DNA from: Candidatus Velthaea sp.
GTDB taxonomy: Bacteria > Vulcanimicrobiota > Vulcanimicrobiia > Vulcanimicrobiales > Vulcanimicrobiaceae
Assembly: GCA_050012475.1 (NCBI GenBank)
Contig: JBEKHC010000088.1
Location: 1-21,413 of the forward strand
Direction: 5' to 3'
DNA length: 21,413 nt
The position numbers were made by a program. Positions 9,001-18,000 of this stretch are shown piece after piece. The first letter of the stretch is position 1; each line of letters begins with the position of its first letter.

Positions 9001-12000
9001 ATTCCGCATTTGTGCTATCCGCTGATTCCGGGCTACGAAGCGGTTGGGGTCGTGCTGCAGGTCGGTGCCGACGTCACCGACGTACACGTGGGCGATGAAG
9101 TGTTCGTGGGCGGAAGCATGTGCTTCACCGACGTCTCGGCCGCTTTTGGCGGGCAGGCGTCGCGGCTGATCAAGAAAGCCGCCCAGGTCGTTCCACTGCA
9201 CGGGATCCCGCTCGCGCATGCTCCGTTGCTCGCGCTCGCGGCGACGAGTTTGCACGGCGTGCGCCGGCTTGGCGATGTGCGCGGGAAACGCGTCGGCGTC
9301 GTCGGCATGGGTGCGATCGGACAGTTCGCCGCGCGCTTCCTCGCCGCACTCGAACCGGCGGAGCTCTATGAAGTGGACACGAATCCTGCCCGGCTCGGCC
9401 ACGTTCGCGGCGCGATTTCCATCGATGCGTCGCAAACGACGCTTGCCGAGGCTGCCGGCGCGCCGTTGGACTGCGTGATCGAAGCCACCGGAAAATCCGA
9501 GATGATCGGGGCGTGCGCGAAAGCGCTTCGGCTCGGCGGTTCGATCGTGCTGCTTTCGTACTACGATACACTGACGACGCCGTTCGTCGATCTCTTCACC
9601 AAAGAGGCGACGCTGCTGGTCGCGCGCGAGTGGAGCCACCCCGACCTGCTGGCGGCACGCGACATGATCGCCGACGGCCGCGTCGACGTCGCCGACCTGG
9701 CTCAAAGCGCTTACCCGATCGCGCACTACGAAGCGGCCTACAAGACCGCATTCGAGGATCCATCGATACTGAAGGTGATTCTGCAATGGGCGTAAGCAAA
9801 AACTCCACCGTCGCCATCTACGGCAAGGGCGGTGCCGGAAAGTCTTTTCTCACCAGCATGACGGCGAAGACGCTGACCGAACGCGGCTTCAACACGTTGC
9901 AGATGGGCTGCGATCCCAAGCACGACAGCGTGGTCACGCATTTCGGCGGCGCGCTGATCCCGACGGTCCTCGGCACTTGGGCGCAGTACGAAAAAGAAGG
10001 CCGCGCCGACGATCTCGCTCCCGAACACATCATCTTTAAGGGCAACGGCGTCTATTGCATCGAGCTGGGCGGCCCGGAGTCGGCGCGCGGCTGCGGCGGA
10101 CGCGGCATCACCTTCGGCTTCTCACTGCTCGAAAAGTGGGGCTTGTCGGAGTGGAACTTCGATTACATGCTGCTCGACTTTCTCGGCGACGTCGTTTGTG
10201 GCGGCTTCGGCACGCCGATCGCGCGTTCGATGGCCGATAAGCTCATCATCGTCTGCAGCAACGAAGGCCAGTCGATGTACGCCGCCAACAACATCGCCTC
10301 CGCGGTCCGTTACTTCGCCGAGCAGGGCGGGAAAACGCGCTGCCTGGGCCTCGTCGTCAACAAAGACGACGGCAGCGGCAAAGCGCAAGCCATGGCAAAG
10401 TGGCTGGGCATTCCGGTGATCGCGTCGATGCCGCTCATCCCGCAAGACGAGGTCGTGATCGACGGCGTTCCCAACGAAGCCGTTCGCAGCGCCGTCGACA
10501 ACGTCATCGCGGCGATCGACGATCTCGACGCGGTCGTCCCCAACAAAGTCGACTTCGTTCAATTCATGATGCACCTCTCGGGCAACGCTGCCGAGATGGA
10601 CGGCACGGCCGTCACCGCCGACGAACTCTGGTCGCTGCCCGAAGTTGTGCCCAAAGCCAAAAAAATCCAGCGCGAACTCGTCCTCGCCGGCATCCCCAAC
10701 GGCGGACGCGCCGATCATCGCTACATCGAAGCGGAAGGCGACGGCGAGAAAGTCCTTGGACCGACGATCGTATCCGTCGGCGGAGGGAATGTGCCGGCTG
10801 CCGACTGGGGCTGATCGTGGGAGAGCGGGGAGGCGACATTGGTGGGGCGGGGACGCCCGCGATTTTACATCCATGTAAAATCGCTACTGCCAAAAAATCT
10901 GCTCCCGCCCTCCGGGCTCCGCAGATTTGTTTGAGCCCCCGCACCACCCATGCCGCCTCCCCGCTCAGCCACGCCGCCAGCGAGTCGGCAGCCGATGGAA
11001 GAGTGGCAGAGTCGGTGGTGTTTCGGGCTCGGAGCAGAAACACGCGCTTGATGCCTTTTTCTTTTTTAAGACAAAGTGGTACATCGAAGTTTGCAGCCTT
11101 CCCCCGCATCGAAATGCGAAGCTACGCGTGCGCGGCGATTGAGCGCTTCGAGATGAACCGGGCGATGCGCGCGGGTCTCCGGTTGGCGCCTGCAGCTCCC
11201 CTCCACCAGCGGCCCAACGCGGTCATCCGCAACAACGAACCAACATCAGAACGCCACGAGCGTTCGGGGTTTTCATGAGTAAACAGGCTTCTTCGATGTG
11301 CCCGGCGTTCGGGGCTGTGCGGAATTTGTTGCGTATGGAAGATGCGATGCCCATCGTTATTTCCAGCGGCGACGGATGTTTGTATGGGCACACCTTCGTG
11401 GCGCATTTTTATGTGGCGAACCGGCCGATCTTTTCGCCCGGGGTGAGTTCGGAGATTTGGGCCAAGGGCTCGGTGTTCGATGAGCTCAAGCTCATGGTGC
11501 ACGAAATGGCGGAGAAACATCAGCCGTCGATCATTCCGATTTGTTCGCTGTGCGTGTCGGATACCGTGGGCTTGCCGTTCGATCTGCTGCCCAAGCAGAT
11601 CGGGCACACCGAGGTCATTTATGTACCGCTGCCGGCGTACAGCGTTCATACGCATTCGCGAGCGAAAGACATCGTCGTCGATTCGCTGGTTTGGCGGTTG
11701 CCGCCGCAGCGCAAAACGCGTGCGGGCGTGAACGTGATCGGAGAGCTGTTTCCCAGCGATCCGATTCATATCGACGAAGTGCTGCGGCGCATCGGAACGC
11801 ACGTGAATACGACGGTGCCCGGTCCGCGCTGGTCGGACTATGTCGCGATGGTGGACGGGGCGCTCAATGCGCCGGTCCATCCGTTTTACTCCGAGAGCGT
11901 CAAGCGGATGAAGATGAAGCAGGGTCTGCCGTTCATCGAGGGCGCACCGGTCGGCATCGATGGAACCTATGCGTGGATCCGCGGCGTCGGTGAGGCGCTC

Positions 12001-15000: not shown

Positions 15001-18000
15001 ATCGCTTCTCTCCCGCACCAGGAGCCCGCAGGTTGAGCGCCTTCCAAGCATACGATCTCGATAAGGTCCAGCTCCTTCGCAACGCCGATTTGGATTCCGC
15101 GCCGCTCGGAGTGATCGTCGTCGACCGCAACGGGAAAATTCTCGAGTACAACGCGTACGAACGCTCGTTGGCCCATATGGGCGACCGCGACGTCACCGGC
15201 CGAAACTTCTTCACCGACGTCGCTCCCTGTACGGCGATCCGCGACTTTCAGGGACGCTTTGGCGAATTCCTCAACTCCGAAGAGACGAGCATCGAGCCGT
15301 TCGAGTTCATTTTCGCGTTTCCGCACGGGCCCGAACGGGTGTCCGTCGTATTTGTCCGCCTTGCAGACGACCGGGAACGCGCAACGATTTGCGTGATCCG
15401 CACGGAGGTAGCCGACTTATCGACCTGACCATTGGAGCCGATCCGCGGTCCGTGCTTGCCGGGGGCGCGAGTTCACCGGTGCGCACCGGCCACGCCGTCG
15501 GCGGTGAACCGTTCCTGCAAAGTCACGGCGCGGGCGCCTACGCGTATGCCGATGGCCGGCGCTACATCGATTACGTCATGGCGTACGGACCGCTCTTGCT
15601 CGGGCACGCTCATCCGGCATTGTGCGCCGGACTCGATCGTGTCGCAGCGCGCGGCATGGTGTATGGGTCGACGACGGCCGATGAAGTCGCCCTGGGCGAA
15701 CGCATTCGCGATCATCTGCCGTCGATGGAACGTGTGCGCTTCACGACGACCGGCAGCGAGGCGGTGATGAGCGCGATCCGGGTAGCGCGCGCCTTTACCG
15801 GACGCGACGCAATCGTGAAGTTTTCCGGCAACTATCACGGTCACTTCGATCTCGCGCTGCTCGACGCCGGCGCCTCGGCCCACACCCGGTCGGCCCGGCA
15901 TTCGGGCATCCCTGCGGCGATCACCGCCGATCTGTTCGTCGCCCGCTACAACGATCTGGCCAGCGTCGATGCGGCGCTCGAACGCTGCGGGTCGCGTCTC
16001 GCTGCAATCGTCGTCGAGCCGATCGTCGGCAACATGGGCCTGGTGCTGCCGGCGCCCGGGTTCCTCGCAGGTCTGCGGGAGCGCGCGCACGCGTGCGGCG
16101 GACTGCTGCTGTTCGATGAAATCATCACCTGGCTGCGGCTCGGTTTCGGCGGCGCGCAGGGGCGCCTGGGCGTACGACCGGACCTCACGACGATCGGCAA
16201 GATCATCGGCGGGGGCGCTCCGTTGGCCGCGTTCGGCGGACGCGCGGACATCATGGCGGTGCTGGCGCCGGACGGCCCGTGCTTCACCGGTGGAACGCAT
16301 GCCGGTAACCCGTTCGCGGTCGAACTCGGGCTGCGAACGCTTGGCTGGCTCGAGACGCACGGTGATTGCTACGCCCGGATGGACGAGCGGGCGCAGCGGT
16401 TGGCGGCCGGGATCCGCACGGCCTTGCGCGCGCTCGACCTCGACTATGCTGTCCTCCAATTGGAGTCGATCGTCGACTTCAAGTTTCGTCCCGGCGCGCC
16501 GACGCGCAATTACGACGATGCGCAGCGGGCCGATGCCTCACTCTTTGCGGCGTTCTATCATGCGCTGCGCAAGCGCGGCGTCTTGCTGGCTCCCTCGCAA
16601 AACGAAGTCATGTTTCTTTCGACCGAACATTCCGATGACGACATTGACGAGACGATCGCCGCCATCGAAGCGTCGCTGCGCGAACTGCGCGCGGAGGGCA
16701 AGCTCTAATGCCGAATGTTTTGGGCGCCGACGCCATCGCGGCCGAACTGGCTCGCCGGCCGGGCTGGACGTACGACGGCGCGGTCATCACGCGCACCTTC
16801 GATCGGGGCGACTTCAACGGATCGATCGCTTTCGTCAACGCCGTCGCTGCGGCAGCCAATCGCCTCGATCATCATCCCGACATCGCGCTGGCCTGGAGCG
16901 AAGTGACGATCTCGACGTCGTCGCACGACGTCAAGGGAATCTCCCCGCGCGATCTGGCCCTCATCGACGCCATCGAGGCACTTTGACATGCTCCCCGGCC
17001 GCAAGGACGGGGATTCGGTTGGGCGAACCAAGGGGCCGCGCCGCTCACGGAGCGCAACGCTTGCTGCTCTCGCAGAGAATCCGCACCTATTCGGCCCTTC
17101 GGAATCTTCAGCCCAGCGCACGAAGGCTTCGTGCGCTGAACGATTCTCTTCCAGATGTGGTGACAGCGCGAGCACCCGCGCGAGGTAGTACGCAGATCGA
17201 CGCGCAGCAGCAGGCCGCCCTGGTTTTGGCTGCGCCGGCTGAGGGCCCGCTTTCGCCGTCACCTTGGTGCCGGGATTGGCGAGCGTGCCTTTTGCCGAAG
17301 CCGCCGTGATGTTGACGACGCGCAGGTCTTCCTGGATCGCGTTCGCGTGGCTCTTCCGAATCATCCAGGGCGGATCATGGTGCCGAATATGGCGCTGACA
17401 TGTTTGCGTCTGCGTAAAGTGCGCTTAGCCTCAAGCTCGCGTAAGAATCTCGTTTAACTCCCGTACTGACTTCATATTCGTAACCCGGCTACCCGAATCA
17501 AGGTGTGAGGGCTGTCATGACGCCTTCATTACCATTGAGAAGGGTCGAACGCACCGGTGCAAACTCAAGCAGCAGCAGGGATCGCGAAGCGGGATCGAAT
17601 CGTGCTCGGTGCCGTACTGGCGCATGTTCCGCTCGTGGCACTCGTCGGCCTATTGTGCGGCCATTTCGTCGTCGGACTGATCGCAGCGTGCGCCGCCGCC
17701 GGCCTGTGCGCGGCGGGCTACGCGACCGCCCGCGGGACGCGGCTCTTCCGGGTGTACGGCGCAATCTTGCTGATGGTCGATTCCGGCGCGCTGATCGCGG
17801 CCAGCGGCGGGCAAACGACCGTCCACTTTCACGTTTTCATCGTCATCACGTTTCTGATTCTTTACTTCGACTGGCTGCCGATCGTGGTCGCCACCGTGAC
17901 GATCGCGCTGCACCACGTGATCGGCAATCTGTTCTTCCAGCCGCTCGTCTTCGGCGACATGGCGATGGGCACGAATTCGTGGGTCACGGTGCTGGTGCAC

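Follow-up and report, generated by a model that had tools for sequence, protein, structure and literature searches.

The window analysed here, a 21,413-nt stretch of DNA from Candidatus Velthaea sp., carries on its forward strand a tightly packed run of genes in the order bchF-C-X-Y-Z, a DprA-like gene, pyp, hemL and pcd, with short or overlapping junctions between them. The first gene of the run, bchF (8372..8839), encoding 2-vinyl bacteriochlorophyllide hydratase (Pfam BCHF PF07284, 113.2 bits), is concealed in another frame of a long ORF (8335-9795), and its GTG start at 8372 is preceded by the ribosome-binding sequence GGAGGGAG. It is followed by bchC (8839..9795, with a putative start; TIGR01202, 249 bits over residues 173-483 of a 486-aa frame; ADH_N and ADH_zinc_N domains), bchX (9786..10814, with the start placed at the onset of the family match; TIGR02016, 299.6 bits), bchY (11275..12600; TIGR02015, 390.6 bits) and bchZ (12557..14203; TIGR02014, 439.2 bits). 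The spacer between bchX and bchY spans 460 nt and contains a terminator-like hairpin, which may interrupt the transcript in this genus. Next comes a Rossmann-fold DprA-like paralogue (14227..15036; PF02481, 149 bits), the stop codon of which overlaps the start of pyp (TTGA). This gene scores 133.8 bits against TIGR00732, under the cut-off of 191, and a better-scoring DprA is encoded on another contig of the genome (C36); the best PDB matches of the protein are DprA and the ShosA antitoxin. Downstream of pyp (15033..15428) lies hemL, the gene for glutamate-1-semialdehyde 2,1-aminomutase (15389..16708; NF000818, 458 bits, cut-off 398), the first start codon of which overlaps pyp by 40 nt, the next in-frame start being a GTG at 15452. 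The run ends with pcd, for a pterin-4a-carbinolamine dehydratase-like protein (16708..16986; PF01329, 81 bits; NF002017, 80.5 bits against a cut-off of 80), the ATG of which has one base in common with the hemL stop codon; a domain search of the genome found no Biopterin_H match. Thus, the gene order of the initial annotation, from bchX to hemL, stands and is extended by pcd, but bchF and a ligase gene discussed below had been overlooked. Neither the DprA-like gene nor hemL is a phototrophy gene, given that hemL of this type is present in 300 of 301 genomes of the family and that the pair is also found without bch genes.

The pyp frame begins with TTG, 8 nt downstream of an AGGAG ribosome-binding sequence, and encodes a 131-aa protein with the motifs ILEYNAYE and FFTDVAPCT, which bears out its annotation as a homologue of photoactive yellow protein (PYP) with the Cys motif. 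Its Pfam matches are PAS_4/PAS, and all 33 PDB sequence matches (E ≤ 0.001) are to PYP, the Ppr PYP domain or PYP-derived FAST, the best being the Ppr PYP domain (1mzu, E 1e-15). The AlphaFold2 model (pLDDT 78, pTM 0.74) leads to the same group, in that the matches listed among Foldseek PDB ranks 1-40 are all PYPs or their derivatives, most with TM scores of 0.7-0.8. When aligned with a solved PYP, the protein retains the equivalents of all 9 pocket residues listed by Dohmen (2025), namely, Ile31, Tyr42, Glu46, Phe62, Val66, Ala67, Pro68, Cys69 and Phe96. Position 50 is Ala and position 52 hydrophobic, the family consensus given in that source being Ala50 and Leu52. By sequence and predicted fold, then, the product is a genuine PYP-family member, consisting of one PAS domain with an N-terminal cap; an output domain is absent. 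It resembles Halorhodospira halophila PYP and the Rhodospirillum centenum Ppr domain in length class, capped PAS fold and full pocket, but differs from them in its low identity (28-37% to solved PYPs), in its NCBIfam photo_yellow score (TIGR02373, E 5.5e-22, 78.2 bits), which is below the curated equivalog cut-off of 143.05, and in the Met100 position, mostly occupied by Arg, His or Lys in its clade. Purifying selection acts on this clade (pairwise NG86 dN/dS, median 0.20 over 112 usable of 120 pairs), and Y39, N40, E43 and C66 are invariant across 30 of its members.

The score under the cut-off is one of the features to be expected if the protein were no photoreceptor at all, but a PAS protein that has lost p-coumarate, the role of which would be to sense a ligand or the redox state in the dark or to assist HemL structurally. 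The supply of chromophore could be read in the same way. No tyrosine ammonia-lyase (TAL) was found in this genome, as previously noted, the sole PF00221 lyase being HutH, which adjoins HutU; furthermore, neither of two single-contig genomes with pyp, G024 and G043, has a pCL-type ligase, and in G043 PF00221 lyases are missing altogether. We nevertheless consider this explanation quite improbable, because the whole pocket is retained, with the equivalents of Tyr42, Glu46 and Cys69 invariant in the 30 clade members, and because, according to Dohmen (2025), no more than 7 of 113 pyp operons encode TAL, a source in which the import of external p-coumarate is also deemed possible. Other acyl-CoA ligases are abundant in this genome (22 partial matches). 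A TIGR02372-type 4-coumarate-CoA-ligase-like (pCL-like) gene reaches 300 bits (cut-off 334.7), the next best family 71 bits. In each of the 4 genomes of this genus, it flanks the photosynthesis cluster; with 6 candidates scored per genome, just 5 of the 301 genomes of the family yielded such a ligase, namely, those of this genus and one other. A chromophore of the p-coumaric acid type is expected on Cys66, the Cys69 equivalent.

The location of pyp is conserved among relatives. The initial annotation had reported the same gene order in nine of these; it holds over 15 other genomes and over 33 orthologue-tier metagenome contigs (among 80 kept of 327 relatives), with the proviso that the contigs may share source data with the genomes and that related genomes are not independent. 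In the other genomes, hemL is directly downstream of pyp in 13 of 15, the exceptions being one with an SDR gene inserted before hemL and one with kdp genes instead, whereas upstream there is bchZ in 11 of 12 assessable genomes and the DprA-like gene in 10 of 14; pcd follows hemL in all 12 assessable orthologue loci. Among the assessable metagenome contigs, 19 of 25 have hemL directly downstream, and 25 of 27 have bchZ (19) or crtB (6) upstream. Conversely, none of the 47 paralogue-tier control contigs shows any bch, crt, hemL or DprA-like match. In a tree, a branch with SH-aLRT support of 91 separates all 47 rows from this position from the 53 remaining PYP rows, and at the orthologue tier (E ≤ 1e-35) matches were obtained in 15 of 401 genomes of the phylum, all 15 in Vulcanimicrobiaceae, and in none of the 104 genomes from 20 other families. 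The pyp genes tied to the cluster and to hemL make up a single orthologous clade restricted to this family. PYPs in general are more widespread, as had been noted: at E ≤ 1e-8, the search matched 68 of 301 family genomes, with up to 7 matches per genome. The present genome harbours five PYP-motif frames, four of them found by search at E ≤ 0.001 and the fifth (on C41) degenerate, in agreement with the earlier count of four further PYP-type genes.

What does this conservation signify? The DprA-like/hemL pair lacks pyp in 5 of 18 hemL loci fetched from other genomes, and therefore the position of pyp could be an insertion held by operon inertia. Under such a scenario, pyp would be a functional general light sensor, with an output that has nothing to do with pigments, such as c-di-GMP signalling or surface behaviour, riding at a site inherited from a historical insertion. 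Several observations are in keeping with it: one of the paralogues encoded in this genome fuses PYP to GGDEF-EAL; two contigs (L118, L119) have a clade member in a glycosyltransferase context, and two others (L132, L134) have a convergent PAS-GAF-GGDEF-EAL gene where hemL would be; GGDEF/EAL proteins are the commonest non-chromophore neighbours in pyp operons as tabulated by Dohmen (2025, Table 2); and pyp has been lost repeatedly among phototrophs. This scenario seems unlikely, however, since the position survives rearrangements (in the 6 contigs with crtB rather than bchZ upstream, hemL is still next), since the DprA-like gene has decayed in several lineages in which pyp is intact, and since this context recurs in 0 of 47 paralogue loci.

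The distribution of pyp among phototrophs defines the limits of the association. Thirty of 301 family genomes are bchZ-positive, as are 16 of the 17 genomes with a pyp copy at this position. Among these 30, pyp is intact in 15, reduced to decayed remnants in 3 (deletion remnants in G059, G122 and G022), absent in 10 and not judgeable in 2. Intact copies occur in at least 4 lineages of the BchYZ tree, on both sides of the midpoint root, which, together with the remnants, fits an ancestral gene of the cluster with several losses. In this clade, pyp has long belonged to the photosynthesis gene cluster, where it lies between bchZ (whether or not a DprA-like gene intervenes) and hemL-pcd, yet phototrophy does not require it, as the 10 bchZ-positive genomes without pyp and the 3 with remnants demonstrate; to call the gene fixed, as in the initial annotation, is too strong. 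Nor can it be described as dedicated to bacteriochlorophyll: genome G228 (94% complete, 6 contigs) retains an intact pyp between the DprA-like gene and hemL, although pufM, bchY and bchZ yielded no match, so that pyp can persist without bacteriochlorophyll. This case, too, is compatible with a passenger at an inherited site.

A further tie between pyp and pigment synthesis comes from the region upstream of bchF. A promoter-like element (8303..8345) consists of the palindrome GGTGACGACTATCACC, followed by G plus 20 nt and the -10-like hexamer TACGAT. This is the sole perfect match of the palindrome within the window; on contig C54, the same palindrome, with the 20-nt spacing and the hexamer TAGCGT, precedes bchH and bchL, and 14 of 15 crp-bchF spacers examined in relatives contain it. 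Judging from these shared features, the element before bchF would work as a promoter, and the location of pyp downstream of a motif common to bchH and bchL supports its tie to the cluster. Between pufC and bchF lies a gene for a Crp/Fnr-family regulator (7443..8123; Pfam HTH_Crp_2, Crp and cNMP_binding), the sequence of which lacks an FNR-type Cys cluster and which is kept in the cluster of relatives both with and without pyp. This regulator is probably the binder of the palindrome (GGTGAY-N4-TATCACC); no PpsR/CrtJ was detected in this genome, the highest score being 35 bits where the cut-off is 275.

Our preferred reading, which we hold tentatively and at a little under an even chance, is that pyp provides a blue-light input co-expressed with bacteriochlorophyll synthesis and tuning pigment or tetrapyrrole output. 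We propose that pyp is transcribed with bchF-C-X-Y-Z and hemL from the palindrome-carrying promoter, probably under the Crp-family regulator, and that the sensor would therefore be produced solely while bacteriochlorophyll is produced. Upon absorbing blue light, the PYP would signal by protein contact to a partner, candidates being the Crp-family regulator, HemL and the DprA-like protein, and would thereby adjust tetrapyrrole/bacteriochlorophyll and possibly also carotenoid output. Transcription as one unit, attachment of the chromophore, and the output with its sign are all deduced here. As reported for cultured V. alpinus, light raises bacteriochlorophyll a and increases bchM mRNA 2.9-fold. 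A pyp within the bch operon of a family of soil and moss bacteria would probably be a light switch for pigment production, and the linkage offers a testable lead to the signalling partner of PYP-type sensors.

Alternatively, PYP might serve phototaxis by relaying a blue-light signal into a pathway of the chemotaxis or type IV pilus type, its place in the bch operon serving only to turn on phototaxis at the same time as the photosystem. PYPs are known to control phototaxis, and fusions of the PYP-MCP kind occur (Dohmen 2025); V. alpinus is described as positively phototactic at 470 nm, with a PYP homologue named as a candidate by the authors of that report. In the window, a gene for a methyl-accepting chemotaxis protein (MCP; 17557..19464, HAMP and MCPsignal), outside the conserved unit, begins 570 nt past pcd, and likewise in G076. 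However, among the 15 other orthologue loci only one (L047) has an MCP gene nearby, and none of the 33 metagenome contigs of the orthologue tier does; the constant neighbours of pyp are hemL and bch/crt genes rather than che genes. Moreover, according to the same description, light of 527 and 624 nm attracts V. alpinus as well, and both wavelengths fall outside the 432-465 nm listed for PYP absorbance maxima. We regard this role as doubtful, and the link to phototaxis suggested in the initial annotation finds little or no support.

Tuning of pigment synthesis by a PYP would have parallels in Proteobacteria, where, in the AppA-PpsR, LdaP-PpsR and AerR/PpaA-CrtJ blue-light systems as described, a light sensor is likewise genetically tied to the photosynthesis cluster. 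Those sensors act by protein contact on pigment-gene expression, as is proposed here for pyp. The sensors of those systems are of the BLUF, LOV or B12 type rather than PYP, and the cluster regulator here is of the Crp family instead of the PpsR/CrtJ type. The reported effects of light also differ, in that light raises bacteriochlorophyll in V. alpinus, whereas it is only in darkness that LdaP lifts the repression by PpsR. Unlike classic PYPs, this one is encoded not in a pyp-pCL-TAL operon but inside bchFCXYZ ... hemL. With the published pyp operons (Dohmen et al. 2025, J Bacteriol) it shares a single-domain pyp in a multi-gene operon and the frequent absence of TAL, but their recurring partners are given as pCL, TAL, GGDEF/EAL, histidine kinases and BLUF, and none of the terms bacteriochlorophyll, hemL, glutamate-1-semialdehyde and DprA appears in the main text of that paper. 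We found no discussion of the adjacency of pyp to the bch operon in the literature searched; it is derivable from the published Vulcanimicrobium locus tags.

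The pyp gene (15033-15428), which encodes a 131-aa protein related to photoactive yellow protein (PYP), lies in a photosynthesis gene cluster in which, according to Pfam and NCBIfam scans, all listed genes are on the + strand. The cluster opens with a crtI-like gene (940-2859) and crtB (2666-3742), followed by two small open reading frames (ORFs), pufL, pufM and pufC (4597-7442), a gene for a Crp/Fnr-family regulator (7443-8123), bchF (8372-8839; PF07284), bchC (ending at 9795), bchX (ending at 10814), bchY (11275-12600), bchZ (12557-14203) and a gene with a DNA_processg_A domain, here called DprA-like (14227-15036). 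Downstream of pyp are hemL (15389-16708), a gene resembling that for pterin-4a-carbinolamine dehydratase (pcd, 16708-16986) and an MCP gene (17557-19464). The bchF gene had been overlooked; it is hidden in a different frame of a long ORF (486 aa, 8335-9795). That ORF is neither an extended bchC nor a BchF-BchC fusion, since bchF stands as a gene of its own with bchC after it. The two small ORFs upstream of pufL (4182-4370 and 4383-4568), read by eye, each contain a single membrane stretch with a His and look like light-harvesting beta and alpha chains.

The pyp product matches the NCBIfam photo_yellow model TIGR02373 (E = 5.5e-22) with 78.2 bits, below the equivalog cut-off of 143.05, which makes it a divergent member of the PYP family rather than an equivalog of the PYP known from H. 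halophila. All 33 PDB sequences matching at E<=0.001 are PYP, the PYP domain of Ppr or PYP-derived FAST. The architecture of the product is typical of the family, with one PAS domain (about 125 aa) and a helical cap at the N-terminus, and its AlphaFold2 model (pLDDT 78, pTM 0.74) is aligned by Foldseek to PYP structures over 122-127 columns, mostly with TM of 0.7-0.8; ranks 1-40 among the matches listed are all PYP or PYP derivatives. In an alignment to solved PYP, C66 of the FFTDVAPCT stretch corresponds to Cys69 of the DVAPC motif, the site of the p-coumaric acid thioester, and Y39 and E43 correspond to Tyr42 and Glu46, which hydrogen-bond the chromophore. Together with I28, F59, V63, A64, P65 and F94, the equivalents of Ile31, Phe62, Val66, Ala67, Pro68 and Phe96, these residues complete the chromophore pocket as listed by Dohmen et al. 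2025 (section 5; 9/9), and 30 aligned clade members all share Y39, N40, E43 and C66. The Ala at the Thr50 position and the Met at the Arg52 position are not defects, because the family consensus given in the same paper is Ala50 and Leu52. The median pairwise dN/dS (NG86) among 16 orthologues is 0.20 (112 usable of 120 pairs), a rough figure because dS is high. From the alignments and the structural model, we conclude that the pyp product is a divergent but genuine PYP-family member, with a predicted chromophore; given the complete pocket, we regard a protein devoid of chromophore as very improbable.

The initial annotation placed pyp inside the bacteriochlorophyll cluster next to hemL, and this position proved to be real and broader than claimed, extending to 15 further genomes and 33 metagenome contigs. 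PYP matches were found in 68 of the 301 Vulcanimicrobiaceae genomes searched, and a distinct top tier (>=140 bits, 57-77% identity) comprises 15 genomes besides the one under study. Within the phylum, the top tier is found in 14/296 genomes of this family as against 0/104 in 20 other families. When up to 16 kb around each of the 15 loci was fetched and the proteins of the window were mapped onto it, hemL was directly 3' of pyp in 13 genomes, the two exceptions being one with an SDR gene between pyp and hemL and another with kdpA/kdpC in place of hemL. Upstream of pyp, bchZ was present in 11 of the 12 assessable loci and the DprA-like gene in 10 of 14. A metagenome scan retained 80 loci of 327 relatives, which by identity divide into 33 top-tier loci and 47 paralogues; these contigs may overlap the source data of the genomes and include near-duplicates (L118 and L119), and hence extend the sample without being independent replication. 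In the top-tier metagenome loci, hemL immediately follows pyp in 19 of the 25 assessable cases; in one of the others it lies 2.9 kb further away, and in five it is missing. Of the 33 loci, 19 have bchZ upstream and 6 have crtB; in 4 the contig ends beyond a DprA-like gene, 2 show no recognisable gene and 2 are unassessable. No bch, crt, hemL or DprA-like match was found in any of the 47 paralogue loci. In a tree of 100 distinct PYP segments, all 47 sequences from this position split from the 53 others (SH-aLRT 91, quick search). In one lineage, represented by two metagenome contigs, hemL downstream of pyp is replaced by a convergent PAS-GAF-PAS-GGDEF-EAL gene (L132:3463-7056 and L134:4481-7285, both on the - strand).

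The gene had also been described as fixed in the operon and as a dedicated sensor, and both terms are overstated. Among the 30 of 301 family genomes in which bchZ is present, pyp is intact in 15 (with bchZ on another contig in three), decayed in 3, absent in 10 and not judgeable in 2, where the contig ends at this position. Of the decayed copies, that of G022 has lost 10 residues, among them the stretch from Tyr42 to Glu46, and those of G122 and G059 are reduced to N- and C-terminal pieces devoid of the Cys motif; among the genomes lacking pyp, the DprA-like gene abuts hemL in two (G090 and G094). Conversely, genome G228 retains an intact run of the DprA-like gene, pyp, hemL and pcd and has no match to bchZ, pufM or bchY, which counts against a strict tie between pyp and bacteriochlorophyll. 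In several loci where pyp is intact, remnants of the DprA-like gene, with stop codons, separate it from bchZ. A tree of BchYZ from 26 genomes shows at least 4 lineages with intact pyp, which fall to either side of the midpoint root, and the absences comprise two clades and two single genomes. The simplest history is an ancestral run of bchFCXYZ, the DprA-like gene, pyp, hemL and pcd, from which pyp or the DprA-like gene was lost on separate occasions, an evolutionary scenario we infer from an unrooted tree of related genomes.

The DprA-like gene and hemL, which flank pyp, are not themselves specific to phototrophs. The hemL product scores 458.3 bits against NF000818 (cut-off 398), which assigns it to HemL, and 435.7 bits against TIGR00713, below the cut-off of 527.3. 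Genes of this type are present in 300 of the 301 family genomes (about 62-83% identity among the matches listed), so that this hemL is a general gene of the family and not a phototroph-specific paralogue; most genomes carry a second, more distant hemL paralogue as well. The DprA-like gene scores 133.8 bits against TIGR00732, short of the cut-off of 191.15 for DprA, and the best solved relatives of its product are DprA and the DprA-like antitoxin ShosA. It is a second copy; the higher-scoring DprA is a gene on contig C36 (199 versus 150 bits against PF02481). In genomes without bch genes, too, the DprA-like gene (14227-15036 in the window) is found paired with hemL (L083 and L094-L097). Among 18 hemL loci taken from genomes that lack this pyp, a non-random sample picked for long contigs, 5 have the DprA-like gene immediately upstream, 6 have pcd downstream, 3 have crtI-crtB nearby and none has pyp. 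It follows that an older set of DprA-like gene, hemL and pcd, located after bchZ in phototrophs, gained pyp by insertion or that pyp arose within it. As for pcd (16708-16986), it follows hemL in every assessable orthologue locus (12/12 in the genomes), despite the assembly having no Biopterin_H match; a role as helper of a phenylalanine hydroxylase that would supply tyrosine to a tyrosine ammonia-lyase (TAL) was rejected for lack of such a partner.

The junctions between the genes are tight. The gap between bchZ and the DprA-like gene is 23 nt, the stop codon of the latter overlaps the pyp start as TTGA, with AGGAG 8 nt upstream, the first start codon of the hemL frame overlaps pyp by 40 nt, and the hemL stop and pcd start have one base in common. 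Over 7300-17700, a scan gave 3 promoter-like sites where 1.6 would be expected, each of the 3 being on the minus strand, and 10 terminator-like sites where 9.3 would be expected, neither count being informative. The bchX-bchY spacer (10815-11274, 460 nt) contains a perfect hairpin palindrome, GATTTTACAT-CC-ATGTAAAATC, and an AT-rich stretch; the two genes abut in most relatives, and the hairpin might interrupt transcription in this genus. Three metatranscriptome runs yielded only three short contigs, all inside hemL and none across a gene junction.

Upstream of bchF is the palindrome GGTGACGACTATCACC (8303-8318, within an element at 8303-8345), followed 3' by 21 nt (G + 20), TACGAT, a ribosome-binding sequence and the GTG start of bchF. 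On contig C54, bchH and bchL are preceded by the same palindrome at the same spacing (C54:21323 and C54:27476), with the hexamer TAGCGT, so that each of the three genes is preceded by GGTGAY-N4-TATCACC, G + 20 nt and a -10-like hexamer. In relatives, 14 of the 15 crp-bchF spacers contain the palindrome, which also lies before bchF in L061 and L073. L058, L071 and L052 gave no match to the exact pattern; the crp-bchF spacer of L058 (genome G038) holds about 3 tandem copies of a unit of about 110 nt. It is the extended form alone that marks bch promoters, the relaxed core GTGAY-N4-RTCAC being rejected as a genome-wide enriched element (8 matches versus 14.6 expected). Such an arrangement is reminiscent of Crp/Fnr-type promoters that depend on an activator, and the palindrome has the appearance of an operator for a bacteriochlorophyll regulon, to which the Crp-family regulator encoded at 7443-8123 probably binds. 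PpsR/CrtJ, the proteobacterial repressor of photosynthesis genes, was not found in the genome, where the best match reaches 35 bits and the cut-off is 275. The predicted palindromic promoter common to bchF, bchH and bchL offers a sketch of possible pigment-gene regulation in a PpsR-less phototroph.

In our view, the best supported, albeit tentative, reading is that the pyp product is a candidate blue-light sensor that is co-expressed with the bacteriochlorophyll regulon and tunes pigment or tetrapyrrole synthesis via some partner. A more specific version, possible but less secure, is that this PYP is the missing light input of a non-PpsR bacteriochlorophyll regulon and in blue light binds the Crp-family activator or HemL, raising or gating tetrapyrrole flow. 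If true, this would explain the stimulation of bacteriochlorophyll synthesis by light in Vulcanimicrobium, and no earlier PYP would have had both its molecular partner defined and a target in metabolism. The resemblance to the AppA, LdaP and AerR antirepressors is one of logic only: those systems combine a BLUF, LOV or B12 sensor with a PpsR/CrtJ partner, whereas the sensor here is a PYP, and it does not belong to their type. The partner of single-domain PYPs has been in question for decades, and the stable, unusual context in this clade provides candidates: HemL, the DprA-like protein and the Crp-family regulator. Furthermore, there is a cultured host, V. alpinus, in which, as reported by Yabe et al. 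2022, light raises bacteriochlorophyll a, and bchM mRNA 2.9-fold.

The same authors considered the PYP homologue WPS_26150 a possible photoreceptor for phototaxis, a role that we consider unlikely for the cluster-embedded gene. About equally unlikely is that pyp is a passenger, a sensor with an output unrelated to pigments, in which case the finding shrinks to a note on synteny. The adjacency of bch genes and pyp can be derived from public data, because Table S8 of Yabe et al. lists bchC, bchX, bchY and bchZ as WPS_26200, 26190, 26180 and 26170, and pyp as WPS_26150; a term search of the main text found no remark on it. Dohmen et al. 2025 include Eremiobacterota among the PYP-bearing phyla and analysed 113 pyp operons, and in their main text bacteriochlorophyll, hemL and DprA do not occur. 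A full-text literature search found no paper placing a PYP in a photosynthesis gene cluster, with Ward et al. 2019 and a 2025 review of aerobic phototrophs covered by term search.

The supply of the chromophore is a separate matter. The absence of TAL noted in the initial annotation stands for this 93.8%-complete assembly, because the sole member of the aromatic ammonia-lyase family (PF00221) is HutH, adjoining HutU. A 4-coumarate-CoA-ligase-like gene at the end of contig C82 (C82:176-1669, - strand) had, however, been overlooked. It matches the PYP-activation model TIGR02372 over its full length with 300 bits, against a cut-off of 334.7 (71 bits for the next family), lies downstream of dhaL and is convergent with an Mrp-like gene extending beyond the start of the window. 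In two genomes of the same genus the order is dhaL, ligase, convergent Mrp-like gene, crtI, crtB, puf, crp, bch and pyp, so that C82 abuts the start of the window and the ligase is about 15 kb upstream of pyp. Such a ligase was found in 5 of the 301 genomes of the family: all four members of this genus, plus G122, in which a weak PYP match adjoins it. The single-contig genomes G024 and G043 carry pyp but yielded no ligase of this kind, and G043 has no PF00221 lyase either. With most PYP-bearing genomes of the family lacking TAL and the dedicated ligase, the source of the chromophore is in question. A relative of the same genus encodes a very divergent extra aromatic-lyase-family gene (L101, G116:C14, 2308-4794; 146 bits to hutH) beside a TonB-dependent receptor, a possible lead for TAL-like activity; no gene of this type was found in the genome under study. 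Among the other PYP-type frames of the latter genome, one paralogue is a PYP-GGDEF-EAL fusion (C13:31806-34112, - strand), and another frame (C41:13346-13804, - strand) has a duplicated DVAPCTN motif, lacks the Tyr/Glu stretch and looks degenerate.
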